Positions 10,032 to 52,145 are shown, counted from the first letter of the stretch. The stretch is 61,108 bases of DNA from Thermoplasmata archaeon (GCA_030037875.1 JASHPV010000089.1:1-61108); one strand, 5' to 3'. Notes: a model not told the origin generated them from the sequence alone. A program made the numbers and translations.

Positions 10032-11621
10032 GTGGCCGAGTTCGATGCGATCGTGATCGGCGCGGGGCACAACGGCCTCGTCACCGCCGGGTACCTGTCC
10101 CGGGCCGGGGCCCGAGTGTTGGTCCTCGAGAAGCGGGGGATCGTCGGGGGCGCCTGCGTGACGGAGGAACCGTGGCCGGGGTTCAAGCTCAGCACGTTCG
10201 GCTATGCGGCCGGCCTGCTGCGACCGAAAATCGTCGAGGAGTTGGAGCTCAAACGGTTCGGCTACCACCCGATCCTCTGCGACCCGCAGGGATTCTCGCC
10301 GTTTCCCGATGGACGTTCACTGACCCTTTGGCTGGACGACGAGAAGACCCAGCAGGAGATCGCCCGTTTCTCGAAGCGGGACGCCGCCGCGTATCCCAAG
10401 TACGTGGCCTGGTGGGACGACATCCTGGACCAGATCGAGCCGATCTTGCTAGCGCCGCCGGTACCGTTGGGAGAGATGCTCAGCTCGTGGAAGGGAGGTG
10501 ACCCGCAACAGCTTCTCAAGGACCTGTTCCTCCAGAGCGCGTCCGATCTTCTTGACGGGTGGTTCGAATCGGAGGAGCTCAAGGGCCTCATGGCCTCGTC
10601 ATCGATCATCGGCACGTTTGCCGGTCCGAGGACGCCGGGCACGGCGTACATTCTAGCGCATAACGAGCTCGGGTACCTGGACGGCCACCGTCGAATCTGG
10701 GGGCTCGCCCAGGGCGGGATGGGAGGGATCACGCAGGCGATGGCCCGGGCCGCGACCCACTATGGGGCGCAGATCCGAACCAACGCGGGTGTTCGGCAGA
10801 TCCTCGTGGAAGGGGGTCGTGCCGTCGGGGTACTGACCGACTCCGGCGAAGTCCATCGGGCACCGACTGTCATCTCCTCGCTTGACCTGAAGCAGACGTT
10901 CCTGCGACTTGTTCCGGAGGAGGCCGTGGACCTTGGCTTCCGCCTCCGGGTGAAGAAGATCCGGAGCGAGGGGGCCTGTCTCAAGTTCAACGCCGCGCTG
11001 GACCGATTGCCGCGCTACACCGCGGCCCCGGACCCGTCCCGTCTATCGGGGTCGCTGGATATCGCGCCGTCGGTGGACTATCTCGAGCGGGCGTTCGACG
11101 AAGCGAAGTACGGCCAATTCTCGAGCCGCCCCTACATCGATATCTACCATCAGAGCCTCCTCGACCCATCGGTGGCGCCACCGGGGAAGCACACGATGTC
11201 GTGCTTCGTCCAGTATGCCCCGACGGAGCTCCGGGGGATGGATTGGAGCGAGGCCCGGTCGCAAGTTGCCGAGACCGTTCTCGATACGCTCCAGGAGTAC
11301 GCCCCGGACATCCGCGAGACCGTGCTCCACTGGCAGGTCGTGACTCCGCAGGACATCGAAAACATCCTGGGGATGACCGGCGGCAACATCGACCAGGGTG
11401 ACATCACCCCGGACCAGCTCTTCTCGTTCCGTCCGATCCCGGGGTGGACGTCGTATCGGACCCCCCTCCCCGGGCTCTACCTCTGCGGTTGCGCCACGCA
11501 TCCGGGGGGAGGCGTTCTAGGGGCTCCGGGCCACAATGCGGCTCAGGTGATCTTGTCCGATTGGGAAGCCACAGGGGGAGGGTCGGCCCCTCCTCCGGCT
11601 AGTCAGTCGGCCCGGCCGTAG
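10032..11621 (+). CDS. FAD-dependent oxidoreductase, phytoene-desaturase/PYROXD2-like (paralogue 3)
   Basis: GTG start. FDAIVIGAGHNGLVTAGYL..LEKRGIVGGACVTEEPWPGFKLSTFGYAAGLLRPKIVEELEL. Colinear with paralogues 1 and 2. Confidence 0.85.
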   Translation: MAEFDAIVIGAGHNGLVTAGYLSRAGARVLVLEKRGIVGGACVTEEPWPGFKLSTFGYAAGLLRPKIVEELELKRFGYHPILCDPQGFSPFPDGRSLTLWLDDEKTQQEIARFSKRDAAAYPKYVAWWDDILDQIEPILLAPPVPLGEMLSSWKGGDPQQLLKDLFLQSASDLLDGWFESEELKGLMASSSIIGTFAGPRTPGTAYILAHNELGYLDGHRRIWGLAQGGMGGITQAMARAATHYGAQIRTNAGVRQILVEGGRAVGVLTDSGEVHRAPTVISSLDLKQTFLRLVPEEAVDLGFRLRVKKIRSEGACLKFNAALDRLPRYTAAPDPSRLSGSLDIAPSVDYLERAFDEAKYGQFSSRPYIDIYHQSLLDPSVAPPGKHTMSCFVQYAPTELRGMDWSEARSQVAETVLDTLQEYAPDIRETVLHWQVVTPQDIENILGMTGGNIDQGDITPDQLFSFRPIPGWTSYRTPLPGLYLCGCATHPGGGVLGAPGHNAAQVILSDWEATGGGSAPPPASQSARP

Positions 11622-11716
11622 GCCTTCGCTCGGAGTCGGCCCCCAAGGGGGGTTTGATAGGCTATATCAAGGGGGGCTGGATAGCACTCGAACCGGTCCC
11701 GGACGCCGCCGTCACC

Positions 11717-13630
11717 ATGGAACCAAAGTGGCTCAGGGTTTCTGCCGTCGTTGTCGCGGTGCTGACTGCGGCGTCGGCCTACGGCGTGTACAATTACTAC
11801 TCCAGCGCCGCCGCCACCGGTTGCGGCCTTCAAAGCACGAACCCTCTGATCTTCGACCAGGCCGAGCAGGTCCACACTCTCGACCCGCAGTGGGCCTATT
11901 CGACCCCCGACTGGGGCGCCGCGCAGCAGGTCTACCAGGCCCTCATCCTGTACAACCAGTCCGACACCATTCAGTTTGACGGGCAGCTTGCCAAGAACTG
12001 GACAAATTCCTCCAACGGGCTGCACTGGAACTTCACCCTCTGGCCGGACGTGCACTTCTCGAACGGTGACCCGTTCAATGCCTACGTGATGTGGTACTCC
12101 CTCTACCGGACCCTCGCCATGTACGGGGCCGACCAGTACCTCCTGGACGAGAACTTCTGGCTGCCGAATGATTGGTACAACAACCCCAACACCACCTATA
12201 CGGACCAAGCGGAACAAAGCCTCCTTTGGGACCTCAACAACTTCAACTTCACGGACCCCAGCAGTGGCCCGGCCAACGAGACCGCGACGCTCTACGCGTC
12301 GAATCAGTCGTTCCAGGTCCTCAACGAGTACGAGATCGAGCTGAACCTCGGAGATGGATACATCGACACCAACTACACGCAGCCGGTGGCGTACACCTAC
12401 CTGCTCGCCGAGATATCCTCCGTCGGCGCGGATGCCGTCGACCCGATCGTCATCGACGCCCATGGCGGAGTGACCGAGGCCGTGAACGAGTGGATGGAGA
12501 ACCACATGGTCGGTACCGGGCCATTTGTCCTGGAACTTTGGAGCCCGGGCAACAGCATTTCATTCAAACCGAGCCCCAACTACTGGGCGGCGGAGGGCAG
12601 CCCCTCCCCGGCCTCCACCGAGCCGTGGAACAACAACCTCCAGCCCGCGAAGACGGCGTTCGAGATCAGCTTCCAGGAAGACCCGTCGATCAACATCCAA
12701 AACCTCCGGAGCGGCGCCTCGGCCGGTGCGTCGTTCGCGTTCCTGGGTCCGGGCACGATCAGCGCGCTCCAGGGCGACACCTGTTTGGAGGTGAAACCCC
12801 TATCCCTCTCCTACTCCGTCGCGAACGGTGGCTGGTGGATCTACATGAACCAGTCCTACGCTCCGTTCAACAATCTGACCGTCCGGGACGCGATCGCCCA
12901 CGCCATCAACATCTCCTACATCGATAACGTGGCCTTTGGTGGCTGGGCCTCCCAGTGGGTCGGCCCTGTGCCGCCGGGGTATCCCGGGTATGACCCCAAC
13001 AATCTGACTCCGTACAAGTTCGACCCGACGCTCGCGAAGCAGCTCATGGCCCAGTCTCCCTGGCCGCATGGGTTCAACACCGCCGCCACTGCGCTCCCGT
13101 TCGTCTACGTGGGCCCGAGTCCGGACTGGGATACGGCGATGACCTTCGTCGCCCAGAATCTGTCCAGCATCGGGATCTACATCACGCCGATCGCGCTGAA
13201 TCTCCCCACGTACTACACGGAACAAGGGTTCGACCTGACCACCGGGCTCTGCATCGCCCAGGAGCATCTCAATGGAGGGCCGTTCGAGATCGGGATGGAG
13301 TTCTACTCCTCCGATTGGATCGCGCCGGACGACTGGACGCTCAACAACGTGTGGACGTATGGTTCCGCCAACCAGTGCATGGGAGGGTACTCGAACGCCA
13401 CGATGGACGCGCTGGCGATCCAGGCCGCGGGCGAGCACAACGAGGCGAAATTCCTCCAGGACTACGCCACGATGACCCAGACGATGTACTACAACTACAC
13501 CGACGTCTGGTTCAACGTCCCGACCCTCTTCGCGGTCTACAACAAGAACGTCGGGGGTCTCTTCCCGAACCCGATCGGGAGCTGCTTGCCCGCGTGGAAC
13601 CTCGAGTGCAACACTGAATACGCCACTTGA
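11717..13630 (+). CDS. ABC transporter substrate-binding protein, family 5 (peptide/nickel/opine type), membrane-anchored
   Basis: ATG 11717 gives MEPKWLRVSAVVVAVLTAASAYG as a signal anchor. LAKNWTNSSNGLHWNFTLWPDVHFSNGDPFNAYVMWYS is typical of SBP family 5. The track ORF starts at an upstream TTG (11654). Confidence 0.8.
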   Translation: MEPKWLRVSAVVVAVLTAASAYGVYNYYSSAAATGCGLQSTNPLIFDQAEQVHTLDPQWAYSTPDWGAAQQVYQALILYNQSDTIQFDGQLAKNWTNSSNGLHWNFTLWPDVHFSNGDPFNAYVMWYSLYRTLAMYGADQYLLDENFWLPNDWYNNPNTTYTDQAEQSLLWDLNNFNFTDPSSGPANETATLYASNQSFQVLNEYEIELNLGDGYIDTNYTQPVAYTYLLAEISSVGADAVDPIVIDAHGGVTEAVNEWMENHMVGTGPFVLELWSPGNSISFKPSPNYWAAEGSPSPASTEPWNNNLQPAKTAFEISFQEDPSINIQNLRSGASAGASFAFLGPGTISALQGDTCLEVKPLSLSYSVANGGWWIYMNQSYAPFNNLTVRDAIAHAINISYIDNVAFGGWASQWVGPVPPGYPGYDPNNLTPYKFDPTLAKQLMAQSPWPHGFNTAATALPFVYVGPSPDWDTAMTFVAQNLSSIGIYITPIALNLPTYYTEQGFDLTTGLCIAQEHLNGGPFEIGMEFYSSDWIAPDDWTLNNVWTYGSANQCMGGYSNATMDALAIQAAGEHNEAKFLQDYATMTQTMYYNYTDVWFNVPTLFAVYNKNVGGLFPNPIGSCLPAWNLECNTEYAT

Positions 13631-34321: not shown

Positions 34322-35245
34322 TCACCGTATGAGTGTCAGCCAATGGGCGTACTGCTTCGAGCGCCCGTGGATCGCGTCGTCGTAGCGCTTCTGGAGCTTC
34401 TGCGTGATCGGGTACGTTCCGGTGCCGATCGCTCGTCCGTCGACCTCGCGGATTGGGGTGATTCCGGCCGCGGTGCCGGTGAACAGCAACTCGTCCGCGG
34501 TGAACATCTCCTCTCGCGTGAAGTCGGAGCGACGGAAGATGAGTCCCTCATCCGCCACGAATTGGATGACCGAGTCCCGGGTCACGCCGCGCAGAATCCC
34601 CGAGCTCGCGGGCGGAGTGCTGACGATGTCGTTCTTGACCCGGAATATGTTCTCCCCCGGCCCTTCGGCGACCATCCCAGCCGAGTTCAGCAGGATGGCT
34701 TCGTCATAGCCGGCGGCCACGGCCTCCATCTTGGCCAGCCCGCTGTTGGCATAGTTGGCCGCGCACTTCGCCTGGGGGGGCAGCGAACGCGAGTCCATCC
34801 TCGTCCAGCTCGATACACTGGCGCGAACCCCCGTGCGAGCGTTCTCCTCCCCTAAGTACGCCCCCCACGACCAGAGCGCTATGGCGACCTGGGTGGGGCT
34901 TCGCGTGGGGTCGAGCCCCATCTCTCCATACCCCGAGAACGCGATGGGACGGAGGTACGCGTCCGTGATCCCATTGTCCTTGACCAGATCGATGCACGCG
35001 CGTTCGAGCTGCTCCTGCGAGTAGGGGATCTTCATCCGATAGATCTTCGCGCTGGCGAGGAATCTCCGGATGTGCTCCGGGAGCCGGAAGAGCCCGGGGC
35101 CGGTCGGGGTACTATGGCAGCGGAGCCCCTCGAAGATCGCGTAGCCGTAGTGCAGGCCGTGCGTCAGGACGTGGACCTGGGCGCTTTCCCAGGGAACGAG
35201 CTTTCCGTCGAGCCAGATGCTTTTCAGCGCCTTGATCGCGACCAT
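34322..35245 (-). CDS. ilvE: Branched-chain amino-acid aminotransferase
   Basis: HGLHYGYAIFEGLRCH, fold-type IV PLP enzyme length (307 aa), GITPIREVDG. Confidence 0.9.
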   Translation of the reverse strand: MVAIKALKSIWLDGKLVPWESAQVHVLTHGLHYGYAIFEGLRCHSTPTGPGLFRLPEHIRRFLASAKIYRMKIPYSQEQLERACIDLVKDNGITDAYLRPIAFSGYGEMGLDPTRSPTQVAIALWSWGAYLGEENARTGVRASVSSWTRMDSRSLPPQAKCAANYANSGLAKMEAVAAGYDEAILLNSAGMVAEGPGENIFRVKNDIVSTPPASSGILRGVTRDSVIQFVADEGLIFRRSDFTREEMFTADELLFTGTAAGITPIREVDGRAIGTGTYPITQKLQKRYDDAIHGRSKQYAHWLTLIR

Positions 35246-35329
35246 GGCGCGATGGGGATTCCCGGGTTGCGTAAAGCATCACGTCAACCCCGGCTGACCC
35301 TTCGACCCGGCAGGCCCTTCCGCCAAAGT

Positions 35330-35349
35330 GTCGCGATGTCAGTCGCGAT
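35330..35349. repeat. Tandem GTCGCGAT-N4-GTCGCGAT (each contains palindromic TCGCGA)
   Basis: Copies at 35330-35337 and 35342-35349 in the ilvE/dps divergent spacer, 50-70 nt upstream of ATG 35399. Confidence 0.5.
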
Positions 35350-35398
35350 TGACGGCCGGTTCATGCCCTCGTTGGAGGTCCCCCGGCCGGGGTCGCTC

Positions 35399-35932
35399 AT
35401 GGAGTCCCATCATCCTTCCCAGCTCGTCGCGTACCTTCGGCACGAACAGGCGAATGCAGTACAGCTCTACCTCCAGTACAAGGGGTATCACTGGAACGTG
35501 AGGGGACCGCAGTTCCATGACCTGCACGTGATGTTCGACGAGCACGCGAAGCTCGTGCTCGACACGATCGACCCGCTCGCGGAGCGGCAGCGAATCCTCG
35601 GCGCCCCGGCCCACTACGACCTCGATGCCCTCGGCCGGTCCTCCCAGCTCGCCGTCGACGTCCAGCTACCCGGCACGGGGAAGGATATGATAGAACACCT
35701 CGCGGAATCCCACCGCCACATTATTCGAGACCTCAAGGCGGGCTTCGAACTGAGCACCGAGCTCCATGACCCGGGAACCGCGGACCTCCTCACTCGGTGC
35801 TTGGTAGTCCACGAGAAGTTGGAATGGTTCCTCCGGGAACTGCTCGAGAGCCGGGTGGACACGCTCGGAGAACTCAACGTGGGTCCGATGGTCATCCGAG
35901 GACACGGGCCGATCCAGACCGGGGTGGCCTGA
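35399..35932 (+). CDS. dps: Dps-family DNA-protecting/ferritin-like protein
   Basis: QLYLQYKGYHWNVRGPQFHDLHVMFDEH is the Dps ferroxidase signature. Alternative in-frame ATGs at 35336 and 35363. The track start at 35072 overlaps ilvE. Confidence 0.85.
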   Translation: MESHHPSQLVAYLRHEQANAVQLYLQYKGYHWNVRGPQFHDLHVMFDEHAKLVLDTIDPLAERQRILGAPAHYDLDALGRSSQLAVDVQLPGTGKDMIEHLAESHRHIIRDLKAGFELSTELHDPGTADLLTRCLVVHEKLEWFLRELLESRVDTLGELNVGPMVIRGHGPIQTGVA

Positions 35933-36104
35933 ACCGACGGCGTTCTCTTCGCGGGCCCGGCCGGGATCGAAATGGGAGTACCGGGAGTTGCCGACCTCCC
36001 GCCGGGGACCAGGGGGACCCCCGCCTAGGCTCGGGAAAACGTCGTTCTCCGCCGTGCCGCCAAGGGTTTAATGGACCGTCTCGAGTCGATTGGCTCACGT
36101 GTCA

Positions 36105-36953
36105 ATGGATCCGCAGCTAACGCCGTCCCTGAGTTCCAGATTTGACATCAAGGCGGTCACCGAGCTCGGGGAAGCCCGCCAGCTGGTCTTCGGCGATCTG
36201 TCGGACTGCTTCAATCCGTTCCTTCCCCGTTTCGTGCGGGAAGCGCTCCTGGGGGGAGGAGAGGTCTGGGTCTCGAGGGAGGATTCGGTCGTCGACGGAC
36301 TTCTCCTGTACAATGTCATCGAAAGGGTGGGCTCCATCTTCACCCGCGATGCCCGAGTGGCGCGGAGACTGTTCGACGTCAAGGCCGCGGGCGCCTTCTT
36401 CTCCGAGTTCTCGCTCAGTACGAAGACCGAAATTTACCCCGTCTTTGCGGTCGAACCGACGGAGGGAGCGGACACCCACCCTTTCGCTCACCCGGTTCGG
36501 ATGGCCCGGAGGTCGGAGCAACCGGCGATCATCCGAATGCTGAACGAGATGTACGGTCCCATCGACACACGGTGGCTGCAGATCGCCTCGCGCGAGGAGG
36601 AAAGATGCTTCGTGGTCGACGTCGCAGGGGAAATCGCTGGCGTCGGATGGGTTTCGGTCGTGGGAGCCCACGGTCGCCTCCACTCCCTCTCGGTACGCCC
36701 CCATTACCGCCGAATCGGGATCGGCACGGACCTCTGGCATGCCCGGGTCCTGTGGGCGCAGAAGGCCGGAGGCCGCCGCGTGATCTCCGAGATTTCGGAG
36801 CTCAACGTGGCCTCCCTTGCTATCGCCCGTGCCGGCGGGATGCGCCGGATCGGCCAGCAGTTCCTTTCCCACAATTCGGCGGGAGGACCTATCCCGGTCT
36901 CACCCTTGGGGAGCCCCGCAGAACGGGCAGACCTTGTCGGTCACGTCGATTAG
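36105..36953 (+). CDS. GNAT-domain acetyltransferase with unrecognised N-terminal domain
   Basis: C-terminal LSVRPHYRRIGIGTDLWHARVLWAQKAGG is a GNAT motif A. ATG at 36105 (TTG at 36090 is possible). Confidence 0.7.
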   Translation: MDPQLTPSLSSRFDIKAVTELGEARQLVFGDLSDCFNPFLPRFVREALLGGGEVWVSREDSVVDGLLLYNVIERVGSIFTRDARVARRLFDVKAAGAFFSEFSLSTKTEIYPVFAVEPTEGADTHPFAHPVRMARRSEQPAIIRMLNEMYGPIDTRWLQIASREEERCFVVDVAGEIAGVGWVSVVGAHGRLHSLSVRPHYRRIGIGTDLWHARVLWAQKAGGRRVISEISELNVASLAIARAGGMRRIGQQFLSHNSAGGPIPVSPLGSPAERADLVGHVD

Positions 36954-37949
36954 GTTCCCGCAGTATCGGCATTTCACTTTGACGGTTTCGCGCAGCACCA
37001 CCTGAGGTACCGGCTGTCCCGGGGGCGTCAGGTTGATCGGGGGCGGGCCCCCCATCGCGGCGAACGGGGGCGGGGGAGGGACCCCGTATCCGATGTTCCC
37101 CGGGGCGGCGTGCTGGGGAAGCCGCTTCGGCCGGTTCCGGGAGCGGAGCACGAGCCAGATCACGAGGACGATGATCAGCAAGAAGACGACGAGCCCGATC
37201 ACGAGAGCCCAAGGGAACGGCGTCGACGGCGGAGGCGCTTGGGCGGGCGTGAGAGCGTACGTGGTACCCGTGACGTAGAGCGTGTCGGTCCACGTAAATC
37301 CATCGCCGGTACTCGAGTTGAGATCGTGCTCGGTGTACAGGTATCCGACGATGTAACCGGTGGCCGGGTCGAAGTAGGACTGCCACGTGTAGGTGGCGTT
37401 GAAAATGCCGTACGCGTCGTCCCGCTCGTAGCTCCCGGTGCCCCGGGCCTCGATCGTGGCGACGTACCCGGTACCGGGGAGGTCGTAGGCGTAATCCCTG
37501 GAGACGACGCTCATCTCCGTGTTGAGGAGGTAGAACGTGTCCCCGGGGCTGAACGAGTTGTTCATGTAGAACCAGACGTACGGGTTCGTGTAGCCGGTTT
37601 GATTATCGGTCCCCTTCACGTAGAGGAACGAGTTCGCGGAGAACGTGAAGTTCCCCGACGCACCACCGGTCTCGTGCGAGCCGGTGTTGTTGCTCCACGA
37701 CCAAGCGTTCTCGAAGGAGGCCGATTCGGTCCCGTTCGGCAGTACCCCGGTCACCCCGACCGTGCCGTTCAGGTACGTGTTCTCGGTATAGCCCGAGTAG
37801 TCGTAGCCCGTCCCGTCGTTCAGCACGATGGTCTCGTAGTAGTAGAACCGGTCGCCGGACCGGGGGACGTAGTGGCCGCCCGCCCCGGCCGCGCTCGGAA
37901 GGCAGAGGAGGAGCACCAGTGCGAGGAGCCCCACGATCCGTGGGCTCAT
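36900..37949 (-). CDS. Type-I membrane protein: secreted Tyr/Thr/Asn-rich domain, TM helix, Pro-rich linker, C-terminal zinc ribbon
   Basis: ATG 37949 gives MSPRIVGLLALVLLLCLPSAAGAGG as a signal peptide. TM helix ALVIGLVVFLLIIVLVIWLVL. Ends CRYCGNLIDVTDKVCPFCG (CxxC-x10-CxxC). The ATGA overlap with the upstream gene supports this start. Confidence 0.65.
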   Translation of the reverse strand: MSPRIVGLLALVLLLCLPSAAGAGGHYVPRSGDRFYYYETIVLNDGTGYDYSGYTENTYLNGTVGVTGVLPNGTESASFENAWSWSNNTGSHETGGASGNFTFSANSFLYVKGTDNQTGYTNPYVWFYMNNSFSPGDTFYLLNTEMSVVSRDYAYDLPGTGYVATIEARGTGSYERDDAYGIFNATYTWQSYFDPATGYIVGYLYTEHDLNSSTGDGFTWTDTLYVTGTTYALTPAQAPPPSTPFPWALVIGLVVFLLIIVLVIWLVLRSRNRPKRLPQHAAPGNIGYGVPPPPPFAAMGGPPPINLTPPGQPVPQVVLRETVKVKCRYCGNLIDVTDKVCPFCGAPQG

Positions 37950-39481
37950 CCCACGAACCCTCCCATCGCGTGGGCGTGGGCCGGATGGGCGCCTCCGAAC
38001 CCGCTGTAGGTCGAGAAGTACGCCCCGTGCCCGACAAAGACCGGCACGAAGAAGAACCACATCCCGGGCATGTAGTGGAAGTTCACCGGCGGAGCCGGGA
38101 CGGCCTTGCCCGTCGTGTCGAGTCCGGTCACGGTCTCGGCCCGGATCCCGTGGATCATGCGCACGGCGAGGGTGATCAACTCCGGTTGGGACATCATCAT
38201 CGCCCGCTTTCCCAGAATGTCGTAGGCCTGCTCGAGCAGTCCGAGCGTCTCGTTGGCCTCGAGGACCGGGATCGAGGCAAGGATCGCGGCGGCGACCAAC
38301 GGGTACTGAAGGTACGCGCCTAACCCTCGGGTCAGGACCGCCAGCTTCGGGCTAAGACCGTCCATCGGCATATCGGACACGGCAAGGTACGCCGACGAGA
38401 GCTCGACGTCCTCGGAGGGGGCGAACCCCCATCCCCCGAACATGGAGCGGAGCCCGGTGAACCGGGCCCCGATCTCATCGAGGGGTCGGTTCACGATCGC
38501 CATCAGGGCCGCCGACTCGTACGAGGGGGTCGCGTGGAGCCAGGTCGCGAGGTTGTCGGTGGCGAACGTGCCGTCGCCGCGTTGACCGAGCAGGATGATC
38601 GAGGAGACCCCCAGGGAAGATTCCTTGGCCACTCCGAGGGACCTCACCTGAGCGTCGAGCTGTTTCAACAGGGGGAGGCTGTCGCCGATGCTGCGGGACG
38701 ACGCGGTCAGGATCTCCGCCGACATGAGCCGGTTCTCGTCGTTGTGCGCGAGGTCGCGAAGGCCATTGTACGCGTCCAGGAATCCTTGGGCGCCTTTCTG
38801 GAGGTCGCTTTCCCGTTTCGCGAGACCGATCGAGATCGCCCACAGGTACGTTCGGTCGGCGGAGGCGAGCGGTTCCACCAGGAGCGAGAAGTACTGGGCG
38901 CCCAGGTTCGCGATATCGTTCAGTTCCCGATCGACCTCCTGGGTTTGGCCCATGTACGAGGCGAACGGCAGATCGGAGACCCGGTAGAGCCGGGTTCCGA
39001 GGTCCCGTAGGGAGAGGGCGCCGAGACTCGTCAGGCCGACGTACCCGTCTCCGTACGGGGTGAGGCTATCGAGCAGCGCCCGCTTCCCCATGTTCTGGTC
39101 GTACTCCTTCTCTTCCGCTGCGAGGTCGCTGTCGGCCGCTTGGAGAGCGGCCTGGTCCTGGGCCTGTTTCTGCAAGTCCGTGGCCTGCTTGTCCTTCGCT
39201 TCGAAATGGAAGAGGATCGAGTGGGACTTTTCGACCTCCTGCCCCAATTGGTTGGCGAGCTGCGCCCGGGCCGCGGCCTTCGCGGCAATGTCCTGCTGGG
39301 CGGGGAGCAGCTGTTGAACGTCTTGCGCGAGTTGGGCATACTGGGCGGCGCCCACGACCTGGAGCAGGCTGAGCTGCTGCAGCGACGTGATGTCCGCCGG
39401 AGGCAGGCTCGCGGTGACCGACCGGTTGCTTACCTGGGTCATGAACGTGTACACGTCCTGACAGTTCGCCATGCTACGCAT
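37946..39481 (-). CDS. Hypothetical protein: N-terminal coiled coil + helical repeats + hydrophobic Gly/His tail
   Basis: 511-aa ORF overlapping its neighbours by 8 and 4 nt. Residues from about 30 to 135 are Q/A/L/D/K-rich heptad-like. No recognised motif. Confidence 0.65.
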   Translation of the reverse strand: MRSMANCQDVYTFMTQVSNRSVTASLPPADITSLQQLSLLQVVGAAQYAQLAQDVQQLLPAQQDIAAKAAARAQLANQLGQEVEKSHSILFHFEAKDKQATDLQKQAQDQAALQAADSDLAAEEKEYDQNMGKRALLDSLTPYGDGYVGLTSLGALSLRDLGTRLYRVSDLPFASYMGQTQEVDRELNDIANLGAQYFSLLVEPLASADRTYLWAISIGLAKRESDLQKGAQGFLDAYNGLRDLAHNDENRLMSAEILTASSRSIGDSLPLLKQLDAQVRSLGVAKESSLGVSSIILLGQRGDGTFATDNLATWLHATPSYESAALMAIVNRPLDEIGARFTGLRSMFGGWGFAPSEDVELSSAYLAVSDMPMDGLSPKLAVLTRGLGAYLQYPLVAAAILASIPVLEANETLGLLEQAYDILGKRAMMMSQPELITLAVRMIHGIRAETVTGLDTTGKAVPAPPVNFHYMPGMWFFFVPVFVGHGAYFSTYSGFGGAHPAHAHAMGGFVG

Positions 39482-40709
39482 CGACCGCCCGGAATTTTGT
39501 ATAAAAGAATTCCTCTTCGCAGCGGTTCTGGATGAGCAGGTCCAGACTCCCGTGGAGGTTCTGGACCTCGACGAAAGGGTCGGCCTTCAGCGCCTCCCGG
39601 AGCACGCCCTCGAAATGTCCCTTCCGACTGGCCGAGACTCCGAACCGTCGGCGCCGTTCCCCTTCGATTTGTTCGTACGCGAACGTGAGCTCGTAGAGGG
39701 ACCGATGGACTTGGTCCTCGATCTTCTCCCGCACCATATCCCGATCGAGGGCTCGCTCCACGATCCCCTCCAGGTCGACGAAGTACGCGGACCCGTTCGG
39801 AGCGAGCACAGCGTCCTTGTCCAGCCACACATCGTCGAAATCTAGGCCCACGTATTTTCCTCGGGACGAATCGAAGGCCATCGTACGCGCGAAGAGGGTC
39901 AGCATCGCCACCGTGCTGCGGACGAAATTGGTCTCGAACTGGAGAGCCCGGGCTTCGGAGTCGATACCGAAGAGCTCGAAGATGTGGCGGATGTTGTGCC
40001 CGACCGTGCTTTTCCCGTGGAAGTAGATCCGTACGTTGGAGGGCACGAGTCGCAGTTCCTGCACGAAGCGTCCGCCATACTTCCGGTACCAATGGATGCT
40101 CCGCAGCCGCTCTTCGAGCGATTCCGGCAACAGGCAGATCTTGACGACCGGTGCGATAAGGAAGCCGGCCACCGAGGTGAGGTCGGCGCGCTCCGAGACG
40201 TGGAGGGCCGTCGAGGCATGGTCCAGGCCCTGGCCCCCGTACGGCGAGCCGCGAAGCCAGACCTCCCCGGTAATGATGCGGTCTGTGGGCGCCGCGGGCT
40301 CGCGCCGCAATCGCCCCCGCACTTCCGGGTCATCCGAGAGTTCCGCAGCGTAGAAGCGGTCCAGGGCTCGCCAAGAGTAGGGGTCGATCGTCGAGCCGAT
40401 ACCCTTGACCGATAGGAAAAACGGAGTTCCATCCAGGGTCACGATCGATTCTGGAAATATCGCCCCCCGGTTGTCGTCCTCGACGAACTCCCGTCTGTCG
40501 ATTGGCGGCTCGTCCATTAGGCCGGTCATGGCGCAGGGGAGGTAGAACCGCTCCAGCCGCGTCAGGTCAAAGGTCTGGAACCGCGGATTGGTAATGCAGT
40601 GGGCCGGGTACGCGGCCAGCTCCACGGGCATTCCGGTGAGTTTCGGCGGTTCGGTGCCCGCTGTAGGAGGCGCAGGCAACGGGGGATGAGGGGCGGTTCG
40701 AGCCGACAT
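39474..40709 (-). CDS. Hypothetical cytosolic protein with weak kinase-like/ATP-grasp-like strings
   Basis: 411-aa ORF with coding-like composition. FFLSVKGIGS, RGSPYGGQG, DFDDVWLDKDAVLAPNGSAYFVDLEG. Family not recognised. Confidence 0.65.
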   Translation of the reverse strand: MSARTAPHPPLPAPPTAGTEPPKLTGMPVELAAYPAHCITNPRFQTFDLTRLERFYLPCAMTGLMDEPPIDRREFVEDDNRGAIFPESIVTLDGTPFFLSVKGIGSTIDPYSWRALDRFYAAELSDDPEVRGRLRREPAAPTDRIITGEVWLRGSPYGGQGLDHASTALHVSERADLTSVAGFLIAPVVKICLLPESLEERLRSIHWYRKYGGRFVQELRLVPSNVRIYFHGKSTVGHNIRHIFELFGIDSEARALQFETNFVRSTVAMLTLFARTMAFDSSRGKYVGLDFDDVWLDKDAVLAPNGSAYFVDLEGIVERALDRDMVREKIEDQVHRSLYELTFAYEQIEGERRRRFGVSASRKGHFEGVLREALKADPFVEVQNLHGSLDLLIQNRCEEEFFYTKFRAVDA

Positions 40710-40716
40710 CGAAATC

Positions 40717-41793
40717 CTACTTGGCGTAGTACGCCGCGACGGCGCGAAACGCCTCCTTCGGTTCCCACGGCACGTCGGGATACGTCGACCCGTGACCGTG
40801 CTCCAGGGTTTTGACCAGACTGAGCGCCGACATGTCTAGGTCGTAGTACGGTTCCTCGGAGTACGGCGAGATGGGGTCTACGAATGTGTCGATGAAAACA
40901 CCATCGACCCCCGCGCGGTCGAGGAGTTCCAGCACGGAGGTGAGTTGACGGGCCTGGGCCCCCTCGTCGCGGACGTGGGCGCCCGGCTTGAGGTGCGGCC
41001 GAACGAGACGGCCCACGACCGGCAGACTGTGCCAGAACTGTGATGCCGGGTCGCCGATCCCGAATCCTAGCGTACCAGTGGAGTGGGCACCCTGGTAAGC
41101 ACGGGAACCAGTCCCGGTCACCACGACCGGTTTTCCGGCGGCGAAGAAGGGCTGGAGCATTTCGATAAATCGGTCCCGGACCCGCTCATCCCAATAGTGA
41201 TCGACGCCGACGAGATCGAACGGTGTCCAATCCACCCCTTCCCACGGCAAGGCGGCGTACGCGACCGGGCCTTGAAAGACGCGGCGAGTTGCCGCGCTTG
41301 CCTCTGCGAGGAATGCGTTGAGCGCGGGACCCCGGCTTCCGGTCCGGATGATGTGGCGGAGAGAGGGATTGTGGAGGCGTTGCAGTAGCGTGCGACCGGG
41401 CAGGATTCCGTTCATGAAGAGCATCAGCTCCTGCCCGACGCAGTACACGAGTTTCCCGCTCGACCTTTGCCGAACCCTCTCCGCGACCTGAGCGGCCCGG
41501 GTGATGTACGAAAGGGTCTCGGACGGGGGCCTATTGAAAAGGGCAGGAGAAAACCAAACCTCGAGACCTAGTTCCAAGGCATAGGACGCGGCCCCCGCGA
41601 TCCGATCGGTGTCGTAGCCAACGACCTTGATTGCGGTACAGTGGAGGTCCCGCTGCACCGTCTCTAGCTCCCGCCGCACGACGTCGTCGACGAAACGCGG
41701 TCGCGTCGATATGCCCAGCGCGTACCGAGTACCGACGTCGTAGGAAACTCCCTTCAATCTCATGAACGCCAGCGCCAGAGCAGGTCTTGCCAT
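40717..41793 (-). CDS. Hypothetical protein, possibly (beta/alpha)8 glycosidase-like
   Basis: MRLKGVSYDVG..., CVGQELMLF, alternating beta/alpha-like pattern. No clear nucleophile. The start is ATG 41793 or ATG 41763 (ATAAAT box overlapping the 41793 ATG, about 28-33 nt upstream of 41763). Confidence 0.5.
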   Translation of the reverse strand: MARPALALAFMRLKGVSYDVGTRYALGISTRPRFVDDVVRRELETVQRDLHCTAIKVVGYDTDRIAGAASYALELGLEVWFSPALFNRPPSETLSYITRAAQVAERVRQRSSGKLVYCVGQELMLFMNGILPGRTLLQRLHNPSLRHIIRTGSRGPALNAFLAEASAATRRVFQGPVAYAALPWEGVDWTPFDLVGVDHYWDERVRDRFIEMLQPFFAAGKPVVVTGTGSRAYQGAHSTGTLGFGIGDPASQFWHSLPVVGRLVRPHLKPGAHVRDEGAQARQLTSVLELLDRAGVDGVFIDTFVDPISPYSEEPYYDLDMSALSLVKTLEHGHGSTYPDVPWEPKEAFRAVAAYYAK

Positions 41794-42034
41794 TTATCCC
41801 ATCGAGGGTTTCGATCCGGTGGGAGGAGTGCGAGATCACGGAGACAGAGGAACCGGTGTGTTTCTCCTGCCTACGGTATGGATTTCCCGCCGGCACGATG
41901 GGGCCCCCTCGTCTTCGAGTGGTCTCTCGTTCACGTGACGCGCAAGCTCGCCGGGAACTGTCCCACGTCCTTGAGGGTGTCGATAGAACATCTAAAGTTC
42001 AGTTTCCTCTCGAACCCCCGGTTGCGATGAGGTC

Positions 42035-43006
42035 ATGAGCCTCGCTCCGGTCCCGATCGCATCGGCCGCCGTGCCGGCAGAACCTGAGCCGGTCATTTCC
42101 GTCCAACATCTCGTCAAGCGGTATGGCGACGTAGTGGCAGTCGACGATGTTTCATTTTCGATCCGTAAGGGAGAGATTTTCGGGATAGTCGGGCCGAACG
42201 GGGCGGGTAAGACTACCACGGTGGAGTGCATCTCAGGTCTACGGGTTCCGGATTCCGGTCGGATCCTCGTAGAGGGATTTTCTCCGCGGACGGATCGCGA
42301 CAAGATACGACAATTCGTGGGAGTCCAACTCCAGGATTGCGCGCTGCCGCCCCGCATCACGGTGGGTGAAGCGGTCGGACTGTTCGCCTCCTTCTATCGC
42401 GACCCGCTGAATGCGGACGAGCTGCTCGAATCGCTGGGGATCCGAACGATCGAGGAAAAGCAGTTCCGAACGTTATCCGGGGGCCAGAAGCAGAGGCTCT
42501 CCATCGCGCTGGCGCTGGTCGGGAATCCGACGATAGCCGTCCTGGACGAGCTGACCACCGGGCTCGACCCGGAGGCTCGGCGGGAAACCTGGGGCCTCAT
42601 CGAACGAATCCGAGACCGTGGTGTCACGGTCGTACTCGTGACCCACTTTATGGACGAGGCGGAGCGACTTTGCGACCGGATCGCCCTCATTGATCACGGG
42701 ATCGTTCGGGCATTGGACACTCCAGAGGCGATCGCGGCGCGCGCGGGAGGATTCCGGGTCCGATTCGTTCCGTCGGCTCCCGTCGACGATCAGACACTTC
42801 GGGCGATTCCGGGGGTGGAATCGATTGAAAGAAAAGACAAGTACGTCACTGTCAGGGGCACGGGGGACCTAGCGGCCTCGGTTGTCGACGCGCTGGCGAA
42901 AGCCGGCATTCGCGTTACCGAACTCGAGGCCCGGGGAGGGAGCCTCGACGATGCCTTCGTCATGCTGACCCGGGAGACCGGTCCCATGGGGCGTGACCGG
43001 GCTTGA
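42035..43006 (+). CDS. ABC transporter ATP-binding protein (ABC-2/DrrA-like)
   Basis: Walker A GPNGAGKTT, signature LSGGQKQRLSIA, Walker B VLDELTTGLD. GAGGT sits 4 nt before the ATG. Confidence 0.9.
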   Translation: MSLAPVPIASAAVPAEPEPVISVQHLVKRYGDVVAVDDVSFSIRKGEIFGIVGPNGAGKTTTVECISGLRVPDSGRILVEGFSPRTDRDKIRQFVGVQLQDCALPPRITVGEAVGLFASFYRDPLNADELLESLGIRTIEEKQFRTLSGGQKQRLSIALALVGNPTIAVLDELTTGLDPEARRETWGLIERIRDRGVTVVLVTHFMDEAERLCDRIALIDHGIVRALDTPEAIAARAGGFRVRFVPSAPVDDQTLRAIPGVESIERKDKYVTVRGTGDLAASVVDALAKAGIRVTELEARGGSLDDAFVMLTRETGPMGRDRA

Positions 43007-44249: not shown

Positions 44250-44705
44250 ATGGCACATTCTCCACCCAGTAGGCGATTCACGTCATGGCGTTGGCTGATC
44301 ATCACAGCCGTTTGCGTCGCTTTCGCGGTCGTCCTGGCAGCGTATCTGTACTGGCCGACGCTCGAACACGAGGTCACGGTCACCCACGCCACCATTCGTA
44401 TCGTCGAGGGCAAGACCCCTACGGACTGGTTCGGAAGTCCATCCATCAACGAGACGACCGGGTATCCGTTCAGATCCACAACGGGCGCTGCGTTCACCGT
44501 CCCTGTGCATTTGATCAATTTCGATTACAACGAAACCCACGTCATTGTAGGGGTGAACGTCTCGAGCCCATTCGTCTTCGTGGGCACGTCTCCTTCGCTG
44601 CCACTTTACGTGGGCCCAGAGGATTCGGTCCTATTCAACGTCACAGTCGATTGCCCACCGACCGTGGGCACGTACGCACTCACGATTACTCTCAGTGCGC
44701 TTTGA
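44250..44705 (+). CDS. Small N-terminally anchored secreted protein (hypothetical)
   Basis: Basic N-terminus plus TM helix WLIITAVCVAFAVVLAAYLYW, then a beta-rich roughly 110-aa domain. Confidence 0.5.
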   Translation: MAHSPPSRRFTSWRWLIITAVCVAFAVVLAAYLYWPTLEHEVTVTHATIRIVEGKTPTDWFGSPSINETTGYPFRSTTGAAFTVPVHLINFDYNETHVIVGVNVSSPFVFVGTSPSLPLYVGPEDSVLFNVTVDCPPTVGTYALTITLSAL

Positions 44706-44811
44706 CGCATGGAGAAGGAATTCCCCGGGCTTCGGACCGCTTGGTGGCGAGAGCTCAATCCAGCCGTCGGCAGGTCGCTTAATAGTTCGCTCAACGCTTT
44801 TAGTTAGGACG

Positions 44812-47097
44812 ATGGGCCCGCGGTTAGTATTGGCTGCCGTTGTGTGTACGCTCGTGCTTCTCGCGGTCGCCGTGTTCGCGGTATCCTCCCTCGAAGGAAC
44901 CGCACCGGGCACCGCGGTCGTTCCTGCGAACCGGACCCCCGCCTTCGATGGATCGGACGCCCCAGGGGCGAACCACGTCATCGCGTCGCTGTCAGTCGGG
45001 AAAAATCCGCTGCCGCCAGTGTACGATGCTGCGAACGGCAACTTGTACGTGGCCAACTACGACATGACCAACGTGAGCGTTATCTCGGCTACTGGGAACG
45101 AAGTCGAAGCCACGATCACTGTCCCTGCTCAGCCCATCACGCCCACCATCGACTCGGGCAATGGAGACCTGTACGTCGCAACCCAGGTCTCGGACAGCGT
45201 GAGCGTGATCTCTGGCCTGACGAACGCGGTGATCGGCTCCATCCCTCTCGGTACGAATGTGGAATCTCTCCCACCGGTGTACGACAGCCGTAACGGGGAC
45301 CTGTACGTCGCCAGTGCATTTTCCAACACTATCGCCGTGATCTCGGGGGCGACGAACACAGTGATTGCCAACCTTTCCTTGCCGGGGTATCCTCTTGTGC
45401 CGACCTACGACGATGGGAATGGCAACATCTACGTCGCCATCGAGGGGACCGGCATTGTGAGCGTCATCGACGGAATGACGAACACGTTGTCGGCGAATGT
45501 GTCGCTGGGTTCCCAGTATCTCCAAACCGGGGCGTACGACGTCGCGAACGGGAACCTGTACTTTCCAGAAATTCCCGCCGGGCCATCGAACCCCCCCGGA
45601 TCCGTGGTGGTGCTTTCCGGGGCAACAAACACGGTGATTGGGACCGTTCCGGTCGGAAAGCTCCCAGAGACTCCGGTCGTGGACGCCCAGAATGGAAACC
45701 TCTACGTGGCCAACTACGGAACGAACAACGTGAGCGTAATCTCGGGGACTGCGAACGCGGTGATCGGAAGCGTACCAACGGGCGCGGGACCCAATCCTCC
45801 GACCTACGACGGGGGCGACGGAGACCTGTACGTTACCTGCGATATCTCGAACAACGTCACGGTGATTTCGGGAGTCACCAACACCGTCGTCGCGAACGTG
45901 CCGGTCGGTCTGACCCCCGAAGTCGGATCGTACGACCCTACCACGGGGTCGGTGTTCTTCACGAACAAGGCGTCCAACAACGTGAGCGTGATGGCCGATG
46001 GAACTGTCCCGATGTATTCCACCACGCTCACGGAAACCGGTCTCCCGGGAGGCACCAAATGGTCGGTGACGATGGATGGAGTCGTTCGAAACTCGACTCA
46101 GGATTCCGTTGTGTTTCTTCTGCCCAACGGCAGCTACCCTTACTCCATCTCCTCCGCTCGGTGTGCTGCGACTTCGCCCCGAGGGACCGTTACCCTGAGC
46201 GGAACCGAGGCAGCGGTCGCAGTCCCATTTCCTCCAGGAAAATGTTCCGGCGCGGTGGGGCTGACGGACCTCCAGTATACGGGGATCGGGATACTGGCTG
46301 CGGTCGCCATTGTACTTGGGACGCTCGTGGCCACAGGTCGACTCCCACCAAGGAGGATCGGTGGGAAGGGAGGACCTGAGTCGACTACCTCTTCCCCGGA
46401 CGGCCAAACGTCCCCGGTACGACCCGAGAGCGGCGCCGAAGGAGCGACGAGCCGTTTCCGGAAGGACAAAAGGAGACGGCGGGTCCGCTGGACGGTCGCC
46501 GCCGGGGTCGTGGTTCTGATGGTGATTGCCGCGTACCTTGTGGTCATTCCCCCGACCTCTCCGAGTCGATCCAGTCCCGGGTCACCCTTCGCCGGGGTTG
46601 CAGTCCATCTCGGAAACTCCTCCTTGGACGTCGTCACTTGCGGAACAGGGACCTCTGTGATCGCCGAACGAGTCCCTTGGATCTCCGCTACGACTCGAGT
46701 CACGACCGCCCAGATCGTGATGCTGGTCTCGGATGTCGATGGAGACATTCTGTCGGATACGGGTCCGTCGCCCAACGTAACCTCGTCGAATTCCTGCGCA
46801 GGGGCGCCTCCCGAGCCGCGCCCGCTGGCGGGCGTCGGCAACGACTTCAGCTGGTATGTGGTGTTAAGCAACCCCAACGGGACGAACGTCGCGTTCTTTA
46901 CCATCACCCAGGGATGGGTCCTGGTCCCCGCCGGACCGTCGACCCCGCTGACCGTGGCCAACGGTTCAGCGTTGACCCTATTCTGTACGCCGTCCGTCTC
47001 CCGGTTGGGCCCCTACAACTTCGAGGGCACCTACGAACTGAAAGTCGGAATCATTGTAAATGGCAGCACGGGGGTCCTCGCGGCCGTCCCCTTGTGA
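44812..47097 (+). CDS. YVTN-repeat beta-propeller surface protein fused to a two-TM linker and a C-terminal novel domain
   Basis: ATG 44812 gives MGPRLVLAAVVCTLVLLAVAVFAV. About 9 repeats of NGNLYVANxxxNxVSVISGxTNxVIxxIxVG. GLPGGTKWSV module. TM, basic cytoplasmic loop, second TM, then a roughly 230-aa domain homologous to 47125-47913. Confidence 0.8.
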   Translation: MGPRLVLAAVVCTLVLLAVAVFAVSSLEGTAPGTAVVPANRTPAFDGSDAPGANHVIASLSVGKNPLPPVYDAANGNLYVANYDMTNVSVISATGNEVEATITVPAQPITPTIDSGNGDLYVATQVSDSVSVISGLTNAVIGSIPLGTNVESLPPVYDSRNGDLYVASAFSNTIAVISGATNTVIANLSLPGYPLVPTYDDGNGNIYVAIEGTGIVSVIDGMTNTLSANVSLGSQYLQTGAYDVANGNLYFPEIPAGPSNPPGSVVVLSGATNTVIGTVPVGKLPETPVVDAQNGNLYVANYGTNNVSVISGTANAVIGSVPTGAGPNPPTYDGGDGDLYVTCDISNNVTVISGVTNTVVANVPVGLTPEVGSYDPTTGSVFFTNKASNNVSVMADGTVPMYSTTLTETGLPGGTKWSVTMDGVVRNSTQDSVVFLLPNGSYPYSISSARCAATSPRGTVTLSGTEAAVAVPFPPGKCSGAVGLTDLQYTGIGILAAVAIVLGTLVATGRLPPRRIGGKGGPESTTSSPDGQTSPVRPESGAEGATSRFRKDKRRRRVRWTVAAGVVVLMVIAAYLVVIPPTSPSRSSPGSPFAGVAVHLGNSSLDVVTCGTGTSVIAERVPWISATTRVTTAQIVMLVSDVDGDILSDTGPSPNVTSSNSCAGAPPEPRPLAGVGNDFSWYVVLSNPNGTNVAFFTITQGWVLVPAGPSTPLTVANGSALTLFCTPSVSRLGPYNFEGTYELKVGIIVNGSTGVLAAVPL

Positions 47098-51857: not shown

Positions 51858-52057
51858 TCGGTCCGAGAGCATCCCTCGCTTCGTGAGGGCGCGCCGCCAC
51901 GGCGGCCCCCCGGAATGACCGCTTCTGAATGCAATGGTCCCGGGTCATCCTTCTTGGGTGGCTACAGTGATTGAGATTCAGTTCCACGGGTGGGCCCGCC
52001 CGCCATCGCCTCGCCCGAGGGCCGGTCGGTCTTTCGGTACCTGAAATGCAGGTTTAA

Positions 52058-52131
52058 CGGGCCCAAGGGGATTCGAACCCCTGATCTTGCGGTTAAGAGC
52101 CGCCTGCTCTACCGGGCTGAGCTATGGGCCC
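52058..52131 (-). tRNA. tRNA-Lys (anticodon CUU)
   Basis: The reverse complement folds as a cloverleaf: GGGCCCA/TGGGCCC acceptor, GCTC..GAGC D-arm, GGCGG-CTCTTAA-CCGCA anticodon arm (27-43 G-A mismatch), AGGGG-TTCGAAT-CCCCT T-arm, discriminator G. No encoded CCA. Confidence 0.85.
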
Positions 52132-52145
52132 GCCTCGTCGGGCTC

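Follow-up and report, generated by a model that had tools for sequence, protein, structure and literature searches.

The stretch of DNA analyzed here comprises 61,108 nucleotides from a Thermoplasmata archaeon (GCA_030037875.1, JASHPV010000089.1:1-61108); it is called the window below, and positions are counted from its first letter. Between positions 36,900 and 41,793 four genes, named i to iv in the direction of reading, are closely packed on the minus strand, and a gene for a GNAT acetyltransferase converges on them from the opposite side. An initial annotation, made from the sequence alone, had interpreted genes i-iv as one translationally coupled operon of unassignable proteins with the character of an envelope-associated or signalling/defence-like module, bounded by a divergent promoter region and by the convergent gene. 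From the comparison with related loci it appears that the conserved unit is a different one: genes ii, iii and iv belong together with the acetyltransferase gene, and gene i is a recent arrival. The genes and the adjoining regions are as follows.

36090-36953, plus strand: convergent GNAT acetyltransferase gene (Pfam Acetyltransf_1)
36900-37949, minus strand: gene iv, 349 aa, type-I membrane protein
37946-39481, minus strand: gene iii, 511 aa from the first ATG or 508 aa from position 39472
39474-40709, minus strand: gene ii, 411 aa, predicted kinase-like / NIS-synthetase-like fold
40717-41793, minus strand: gene i, 358 aa, AcvX-like barrel protein
41794-42034: intergenic region between the divergently oriented gene i and ABC-transporter ATPase gene
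42035-43006, plus strand: ABC-transporter ATPase gene, divergent flank

The four minus-strand open reading frames (ORFs) are present as annotated, and so are the 7-nt spacer between i and ii (40710-40716, TAGgatttcgATG in the junction read) and the ATGA stop/start overlap between iii and iv (37946-37949). At the ii/iii junction (gtcgATGcgTAGcATGgcg) the 8-nt overlap described earlier holds if iii starts at the first ATG (39481), but the second ATG (39472) leaves a 1-nt spacer instead. The second start, giving a protein of 508 aa, is the probable one: it fits the length of the iii homologues, which are mostly 505-515 aa among the matches listed, and the resulting 1-nt spacer equals the spacing of the called genes in a related locus (L003). 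The ii/iii junction is tight whichever start is used. For gene i the true start is likely Met11 (41763), the position at which the alignment to its closest structural homologue, AcvX, begins. At the other end of the cluster the 3' ends of iv, on the minus strand, and of the GNAT ORF, on the plus strand, overlap by 54 nt (36900-36953); the two genes abut or overlap likewise in several relatives. The region 41794-42034 is the sole promoter space upstream of i-ii-iii-iv in the window.

All four minus-strand ORFs are real genes under purifying selection and not chance ORFs, because they have hundreds of homologues with E < 1e-100 and ratios of non-synonymous to synonymous substitution (dN/dS) of 0.10-0.29. 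Homologues numbered 1251 for ii, 477 for iii and 847 for i. The ratios, calculated according to Nei and Gojobori against three relatives, were 0.10-0.11 for ii, 0.11-0.16 for iii, 0.20-0.29 for iv, 0.12-0.17 for i, and 0.26-0.29 for the GNAT gene. Translation of iii and iv, which the initial annotation had treated as a point to be verified, is thus indicated by the way these genes evolve. The window has a guanine-plus-cytosine (G+C) content of ~65%, with no compositional break across the region.

Relatives of ii were found in 245 genomes in a scan with one representative genome per species. The best 80 of these were examined and, together with the loci L001-L005, make up 85 genome-derived loci that were compared with the window proteins by tblastn. 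All but one of the best 80 are metagenome-assembled genomes (MAGs) labelled as Thermoplasmata, among them Candidatus Lutacidiplasma silvani (TMEG / Lutacidiplasmatales group); the exception carries no label other than 'bacterium'. A metagenome scan seeded on the distant clade gave 80 loci, 33 of which have the architecture called type B below and ~47 that called type A.

In every genome-derived locus with enough DNA, ii, iii and iv lie in this order on one strand, separated by spacers of a few bases, and a convergent GNAT homologue follows iv in nearly all of the 85. Type A consists of ii, iii and iv, the latter with ectodomain, transmembrane (TM) helix, proline-rich linker and zinc ribbon, plus the convergent GNAT gene. 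The same arrangement was observed in the ~47 type-A metagenome loci, and ii-iii-iv are contiguous in ~130 loci overall, in which order and overlapping junctions are kept though protein identity drops to ~35-45%. The tight coupling described for the minus-strand genes is therefore upheld, and synteny across related loci holds for ii, iii and iv, but not for gene i, which is treated separately below.

Type B, found in a sister clade, has a fused ectodomain-TM-GNAT protein, followed by ii and then by iii. The fused proteins of L092 (585 aa) and L090 (500 aa) start with an iv-like signal peptide, ectodomain and TM helix and continue with the N-domain and the GNAT domain. Their iv-like parts match iv of the window in BLASTP (E 2e-25 for L092 and 2e-15 for L090); the C-terminal part of the L092 protein matches the window GNAT protein (BLASTP E 6e-23), and the C-terminal GNAT part of the L090 protein is backed by GNAT matches in Pfam and NCBIfam. 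Genes ii and iii are located directly downstream of the fused gene in L090, L091 and L092, and the iii-like proteins of type B are homologous to iii, with a hidden Markov model match of 1e-15 for L091 and an hhalign probability of 75% (E 2.5e-5, 408 collinear columns) for L090. In the 33 type-B metagenome loci ectodomain and GNAT were found upstream of ii, on the same strand, wherever upstream DNA was present, and none of the loci with upstream DNA had a zinc ribbon. From ectodomain to GNAT the sequence is one uninterrupted ORF, with a stop overlapping the start of ii, in 23 of 23 type-B loci.

In type B the ORF for the fused iv-type and GNAT protein is thus coupled in translation with ii and iii, and we therefore take iv, GNAT, ii and iii, without i, to be the working unit. 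On the level of gene content we regard the fusion as decisive for the membership of the GNAT protein. The proposed boundaries are thus present, both the divergent region and the convergent gene, but the convergent gene is no mere boundary: its product is a component, and in the sister clade it is fused to an iv-type ectodomain and TM helix. The functional link between the ectodomain-TM protein, GNAT, ii and iii may be considered solid on this comparative evidence, and so may the placing of at least GNAT on the cytoplasmic side of the membrane. The distribution argues for a module that is vertically inherited, lineage-restricted and membrane-associated, and that would be confined to one group of soil archaea.

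Some loci deviate in details from the two architectures. Two copies of the whole module, L057 and L061, are located on different contigs of one MAG (YP4.bin112) and represent either paralogues or mixed strains. One protein of 577 aa (P0462) starts like iv, with a signal peptide, a Y/T/G-rich ectodomain and a TM helix, and continues with a garbled part rich in Arg and Pro, while its end resembles the N-terminal part of ii. This sequence probably reflects a frameshifted or misassembled contig, or else a different gene order. In L090 a 285-aa ORF (10978-11835) is coupled to the end of iii and begins with 'GGTLFVYGSLL'. It has no match in Pfam or NCBIfam and was not seen in the other loci, and its start resembles the YGSL motif of gamma-glutamylcyclotransferase/AIG2-like proteins. 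In L092 a 57-aa ORF with a double zinc ribbon (534-707, minus strand) lies divergent from the fused ectodomain-GNAT gene; it could be a separate counterpart of the zinc ribbon or a coincidence.

The product of gene i, previously called unassignable, belongs to a family with a solved structure. It is ~50% identical to the protein 'AcvX' (PDB 7y4h) over the full length (residues 11-356 against 1-336), with an E-value of 1.3e-71 for the single sequence and of 1.7e-99 for the family profile. The remaining PDB matches of the profile are sub-threshold and nearly all to GH5-type endoglucanases and endo-beta-mannanases, aligned up to the motif TEFG, which is a lead, though not proof, that the protein is a clan GH-A-like (beta/alpha)8 barrel. 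By analogy with GH-A, the glutamate of TEFG is a putative nucleophile. In the window protein and in 16 of 16 close relatives TEFG is replaced by TGTG (E227G), whereas more distant family members and AcvX keep TEFG or TELG, and the earlier remark that clear catalytic glutamates are missing is accurate for this sub-clade. Since the glutamate is lost and purifying selection nevertheless persists, the product of gene i probably has a non-canonical role. No publication describing AcvX was found; the literature yielded nothing but the acvABCDEF genes for acetovanillone, which are unrelated. The name 'abortive infection protein', given to the family in some records of NCBI and UniRef, is backed by nothing in this analysis.

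A homologue of gene i within 8 kb of ii was found by tblastn in none of the 85 genome-derived loci, and gene i was absent near ii in 79 of the 80 metagenome loci. Only the closest relatives (L086, L087 and L178) have it beside ii, likewise at a distance of 7 nt; in L136 part of the gene is present upstream of ii. In the closest species representative (L006, ii 79% identical) ~1 kb of gene i is deleted, while ii, iii, iv and GNAT are intact. Positions 7734-7775 of this locus correspond to window 41953-41912, and positions 7908-7962 to window 40782-40728, after which the correspondence is continuous through ii-iii-iv-GNAT; the stretch 41912-41953 is thus still recognisable upstream of ii. The scar (7860-7965) has the first codons of gene i (ATGGCAG...) joined to the last ~20 (...YPDMMWDP*EAFRAVSEYWAE), directly before ii. 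L177 has a copy with the TGTG variant and 71% identity at a site separate from ii, where its neighbour is an aquaporin gene. Isolated copies of greater divergence were located on actinomycete megaplasmids, near regulators in Dactylosporangium and near MFS transporters in Thermoplasmata, and the family extends to Actinobacteria and Chloroflexota, in unrelated contexts. Absence from the 85 loci, deletion in L006 and solitary occurrence elsewhere lead us to conclude that gene i is a recent, dispensable neighbour and not part of the core. A 360-aa gene upstream of ii in L003 was considered as a homologue of gene i and rejected, as the two are not homologous.

As had been proposed, iv is a membrane protein of type I that carries a zinc ribbon; its segments are the following.

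37878-37949, minus strand: signal peptide (residues 1-24)
37146-37217, minus strand: TM helix (residues 245-268)
36909-36980, minus strand: zinc ribbon CxxC-x10-CxxC (CRYCGNLIDVTDKVCPFCG)

The ectodomain of ~215 aa is rich in Thr, Gly and Tyr and has eight N-x-S/T sequons. The TM helix is followed by RSRNRPKR, a proline-rich cytoplasmic linker and the four-Cys ribbon. Pfam Zn_ribbon_3 scores 22 bits on iv, below its cutoff of 27 bits, and all four Cys are kept in homologues at 52-58% identity. Type-A loci with DNA reaching far enough have the zinc-ribbon tail segment as well.

The GNAT protein scores 44.3 bits with Pfam Acetyltransf_1, against a cutoff of 20.7, and has an N-terminal domain of ~105-150 aa followed by a RimI/Ard1-like GNAT domain. 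Its family profile matches RimI (9mto, 5.5e-11) and Ard1 (4pv6, 5.5e-10) best in the PDB, and the first ~105 positions of the profile have no PDB match. The top NCBIfam model is TIGR01575 (rimI), with 23.5 bits for the window protein, 48.4 bits for L092 and 36.8 bits for L090, all against a cutoff of 86.4. The partner is thus RimI-like, but not a RimI orthologue.

For protein ii an AlphaFold2 model was obtained from an alignment of 52 sequences, with a predicted local distance difference test score (pLDDT) of 90 and a predicted TM-score (pTM) of 0.88. In a Foldseek search against the PDB the model matched NIS synthetases first (DfoC 5o7o, AcsD 2w04, DesD 7tgj, IucC 6cn7 and AlcC 2x0p), with E-values of 3e-4 to 1e-2, probabilities of at most 0.98, TM-scores of 0.25-0.40 and root-mean-square deviations of 8-16 A. 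A second tier of weak matches (E 0.03-0.6) comprised protein kinases, macrolide phosphotransferases (MPH) and SidJ, and in a viral structure library the only named matches were insignificant ones to kinases. The kinase-like, nucleotide-binding type of fold that had been suspected from short sequence strings is thus supported by model and structure search. We are confident that the fold class is kinase-like / NIS-synthetase-like as predicted, and conclude from the model that ii represents a new branch of this nucleotide-dependent fold. By sequence, no Pfam or NCBIfam model, that for IucA_IucC included, matched ii or 46 diverse family members at E<=1, and sequence and profile searches of the PDB gave nothing better than E 0.3.

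The ii family amounts to 129 clusters among 1.84 billion representative proteins. Conserved family-wide, down to ~20% identity, are R81, K102-G-x-G105, P156-x-G158-x-Q160, P187, Q217-x-x-R220-L-x-P223-S224-x-x-R227, D299, G306 and D312-L-E314. In the model K102 ends a beta strand of the N-terminal sheet, and it resembles the beta3 Lys of kinases. D299 and D312 are 13 residues apart (D-x12-D), which is the spacing from the metal-binding Asn to the Asp of DFG in APH and PKA, the roles being assigned by spacing only. Judged from the predicted fold, ii probably uses ATP. Residues 1-25 of ii form a poorly conserved Pro/Ala-rich extension with an 'MS[AV]' start and a pLDDT below 50. The 411-aa form occurs among the closest relatives, including the gene i carriers L086, L087 and L178, and ii of other clades starts at the equivalent of residue ~22-26. 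The extension may be a by-product of the insertion of gene i, and the real start could be Met26.

The AlphaFold2 model of protein iii has a pLDDT of 79, falling below 50 in the tail (residues 444-508). From the N-terminus onwards it has a short helical element, a long coiled-coil hairpin formed by helices 55-83 and 93-136, and a set of twelve helices spanning residues ~207-440. The description of iii as an all-helical protein with a coiled coil, helical repeats and a hydrophobic Gly/His-rich tail is in agreement with the model and with Foldseek, in which residues ~200-440 match only designed alpha/alpha toroids (TM-score normalised to the target 0.51-0.56). Of natural toroid families (LanC, terpene cyclases, GH15 and others) none was matched, and nothing better than E 0.3 was obtained for iii from the PDB by sequence or profile. 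Pfam DUF4003 was rejected as an assignment: it hit two of 59 homologues (best E 0.014) and was not reproduced on excised toroid regions. Residues 1-40 have helices at 4-15 and 25-33, a strand at 37-40 and a pattern 'L..LQQL.L.QV' ('DLVKRGLVD' in L090); this N-terminus looks like part of a winged-helix element, with no profile match to back it.

The C-terminal tail of iii contains two features of particular conservation.

37970-37987, minus strand: HPxHxH motif (H496-P-A-H499-A-H501)
37949-37951, minus strand: codon of the terminal Gly508, sharing a base with the start codon of iv

Gly508 is located seven residues beyond the HPxHxH motif. In a joint alignment of type A and type B (25 sequences, ~25% identity) the fully invariant residues are G151, E431, A436, H496, P497 and H499, and H501 is identical in 24 of the 25. 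The last residue of the 59 aligned type-A proteins, whose tails vary in length, is Gly without exception, and the same is true of 20 of 21 type-B proteins (...FG); the remaining one looks frameshifted. The iii-like proteins of L090 and L091 end in ...HSHPGHFHGGMG and ...THPMHMHTVPYFG, respectively, both with a final Gly. An aromatic stretch precedes HPxHxH in both types (FFFVP..HGAYYSTFSG in type A and SWYVWH.YWVYRP in type B). The tail with HPxHxH is thus the most conserved element of the iii family, and the motif together with the free terminal Gly points to a metal site and/or to a peptide that inserts into a partner protein or is modified by it. HPxHxHG also has the spacing of a copper-ligand motif of multicopper oxidases, which we regard as a lead only. 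A canonical TM helix in the tail was rejected: no 19-residue window there reaches a Kyte-Doolittle value of 1.6, and the hydropathy maximum of iii (1.66, residue 386) lies in the toroid. An interfacial aromatic anchor is possible.

When single proteins and alignment members were compared with Pfam, NCBIfam, PADLOC and PHROGs, nothing was found for i-iii and only the zinc ribbon for iv. The earlier statement that ii-iv belong to no characterised family holds to this extent, as no significant match to a curated library was obtained apart from the zinc ribbon. PADLOC gave zero matches at E<=1 for any component, PHROGs matched only a generic acetyltransferase, and relatives of ii were found on none of 72,556 plasmids and 50,697 phage records. 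In close relatives the position of the module is fixed beside the same housekeeping genes, one ferritin/Dps-like and one for a class-IV aminotransferase. From these comparisons there is no signal of a defence, phage or plasmid origin, and the suggested defence-like or mobile character was not supported. The suggested association with the envelope, on the other hand, agrees with the membrane link provided by the ectodomain and TM helix of iv and by the fused GNAT. In the tests run, none of the described families or systems accommodated the core module.

Further features of the window outside the module are listed here.

35072-35932: ferritin/Dps-like gene, next to the GNAT gene
34322-35245: class-IV aminotransferase gene, next to the GNAT gene
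44695-47097, plus strand: 800-aa ORF with ~40-residue repeats 'NGNLYVANY..NNVSVISG.TN.V', YVTN/beta-propeller-like
52057-52132: tRNA-Lys, the only RNA gene in the window

The ferritin/Dps-like and class-IV aminotransferase genes adjoin GNAT also in L086, and a ferritin-like gene is present in L006-L008 as well. That a ferritin gene adjoins a module in which one protein has a His-rich tail could be significant or fortuitous. The 800-aa ORF has a weak match to Pfam SGL and hydrophobic segments, and probably encodes a surface protein.

The findings can be combined in the following picture. Protein iv would be a receptor-like type-I membrane protein that places GNAT at the inner face of the membrane, either by fusion or, after gene fission, probably via the zinc ribbon; a ribbon newly acquired by iv in type A may have assumed the tethering once the genes had separated. 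Protein ii would be a soluble enzyme. Protein iii would be a scaffold and/or a dedicated substrate with the C-terminal peptide as its functional centre, and this tail might bind metal and/or enter the active sites of ii, for phosphoryl or adenylyl transfer, and of GNAT, for acyl transfer. Contacts of the glycosylated ectodomain could thereby cause the module to write, or to sense, a modification at the membrane. Gene i would be co-transcribed in the window only because it is seated between the promoter region and ii. Our best guess is accordingly a complex tethered to the membrane, protein-modifying or sensing in function, that works via the tail of iii. Gene content, synteny, the fusion, the fold class of ii, the conservation of the tail and the dispensability of gene i have been shown, whereas ATP use by ii, a physical complex, and the tail as substrate or metal site are what we infer. 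That a membrane-associated four-part module of iv, GNAT, ii and iii works as proposed here is tentative, a quite possible reading that falls a little short of being the probable one, and any specific chemistry assigned to it is clearly doubtful.

Several observations weigh against this picture. The most distant homologues of ii, in L088 and L089 (8001-9359; ~21% identity, low G+C), are part of a different operon, with small unassigned proteins and no recognisable iii, iv or GNAT beside ii; from this context it follows that ii can work outside the module. Structural comparison of ii with NIS synthetases and kinases gives low TM-scores (0.2-0.4), the Pfam kinase and APH models match neither the window protein nor the 46 members, and the ii profile aligned to authentic IucC and IucA (pLVPK) gave an hhalign probability of 0.1%. 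The catalytic Asp of kinase type (HRD/HGD) is not conserved: D293 is invariant in the close clade and lost in distant ii proteins. Finally, the tail of iii is predicted to be disordered.

Alternative explanations differ in which genes they unite and in the chemistry they assume. If genes i-iv formed a single envelope or defence-like module, with the barrel protein and the nucleotide-binding protein as an enzyme pair on a coiled-coil scaffold and iv as the anchor, one would expect the 7-nt i/ii gap and promoter space only upstream of i, and the same i/ii junction in L086, L087 and L178 and the partial copy in L136 would follow, as would the purifying selection on gene i despite E227G. This very improbable interpretation is largely refuted by the absence of i near ii in 85 of 85 genome-derived and 79 of 80 metagenome loci, by the clean deletion in L006 and the TGTG variant away from ii in L177, by the unrelated contexts of the i family in Actinobacteria and Chloroflexota, and by the lack of defence matches in PADLOC or PHROGs and of ii relatives on plasmids or phages. 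The opposite view, that functionally unrelated neighbours are packed in a compact genome, takes up the fact that no function is known among ii-iv and hence no biochemical link is demonstrated. It is barely credible given the order and overlapping junctions kept in ~130 loci at identities down to ~35-45%, and given that the same parts recur in two independent architectures, one of them with a gene fusion.

Two further alternatives accept the unit but assign it another chemistry. GNAT and ii could be a metallophore-like biosynthetic pair, in which GNAT acylates an amine, the NIS-like ii adenylates and condenses a carboxylate, and the His-tail of iii is a metal accessory, in analogy to IucB with IucA/IucC or to the DfoC fusion. 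The top Foldseek matches of ii are indeed NIS synthetases, among them DfoC, a natural acetyltransferase-NIS fusion; the obligatory GNAT partner, the conserved motif of three His in iii and the invariant arginines of ii (R81, R220 and R227), which could hold a carboxylate, also fit. Such a pair is unlikely, however, as ii has neither sequence similarity to IucA/IucC nor a match to Pfam IucA_IucC, is 385-411 aa long against ~575-620 aa, and reaches TM-scores of at most 0.4. In the neighbourhoods examined, genes for a decarboxylase, an N-hydroxylase (N-monooxygenase) or a siderophore transporter are not conserved; the best matches of GNAT are to protein N-acetyltransferases, and its tethering to an ectodomain membrane protein would be odd for a soluble biosynthetic enzyme. 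Alternatively, ii could activate iii at the C-terminal Gly for ligation to a lipid head group or a protein amine, with the logic of ubiquitin, Atg8 or Pup but with unrelated folds. The terminal Gly in 59 of 59 type-A and 20 of 21 type-B proteins, despite varying tail length and composition, speaks for this, and so do the resemblance in fold of ii to carboxylate-adenylating NIS synthetases and the location of all components at or near the membrane. We consider it very unlikely all the same, since there is no beta-grasp fold and no enzyme of E1 or Pup-ligase type, a Gly-rich tail biases the last residue to Gly in type A, and metal binding or docking would equally explain the conservation of HPxHxH.

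Returning to the membrane-tethered complex of iv, GNAT, ii and iii, its novelty is that of an uncharacterised module that could not be placed, not of a demonstrated new mechanism. If the proposal is true, an order-level group of abundant archaea of acid soils and peat, the Thermoplasmata around Ca. Lutacidiplasma, formerly TMEG, carries a membrane module that no curated family describes. The natural split and fused architectures and the invariant tail are concrete handles for experiments, and correction of the unit of study to ii, iii, iv and GNAT, without i, would save follow-up effort. A new protein-modification chemistry, in which ii activates, at the membrane, the Gly carboxylate of iii or its HPxHxH/Ser/Thr/Tyr-rich tail under control of a receptor-tethered RimI-like acetyltransferase, is a long shot; if it were true, it would amount to an archaeal receptor-acetyltransferase system of signalling or conjugation without counterpart among two-component, Ser/Thr-kinase and ubiquitin-like systems.

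Each component can be compared with known systems. Gene i shares ~50% identity over the full length with AcvX, which keeps the TEFG glutamate where the window's copy and 16 close relatives have TGTG, and shows a distant profile likeness to clan GH-A glycosidases (GH5 endoglucanases and endo-beta-mannanases) up to that motif. The toroid of iii has its only structural matches in designed left-handed alpha/alpha toroids (4yxx, 8c3w and 9h3c), which are artificial. With ubiquitin-like, ThiS-MoaD and Pup modifiers iii shares an invariant free C-terminal Gly, and its gene adjoins that of a putative ATP-dependent enzyme, a resemblance that is conceptual only: those modifiers are small beta-grasp or disordered tags, whereas iii is a helical protein of ~500 aa, and domains of ThiF, MoeB, E1, Dop or PafA/Pup-ligase were found in none of the neighbourhoods examined.

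The Lys at a strand end and the D-x12-D pair of ii resemble the beta3 Lys and the Asn...DFG metal ligands of the protein-kinase-like superfamily, to which eukaryotic-type kinases, macrolide and aminoglycoside phosphotransferases and SidJ belong. Protein ii differs in that the matches are weak (E > 0.03), with neither a Pfam Pkinase/APH match nor a conserved HRD-type Asp, and in having invariant motifs of its own (DDNR, PYGGQG and QElRLvPSNvR). The GNAT domain of the partner comes closest to RimI and Ard1 (NatA-type) protein N-alpha-acetyltransferases, but it scores below the RimI equivalog cutoff, has an extra N-terminal domain and, in the sister clade, is fused to a TM helix and an extracellular domain. 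NIS synthetases are the best structural match to the ii model. They have three domains and are ~575-620 aa long, ii being ~200 residues shorter at 385-411 aa, and neither similarity to ii in sequence or profile nor siderophore pathway genes near ii were found. NIS synthetases depend on ATP and work together with a GNAT acyltransferase, to which the synthetase is fused in DfoC; a GNAT partner is thus common to both systems, but that of the module would be membrane-tethered and RimI-like.

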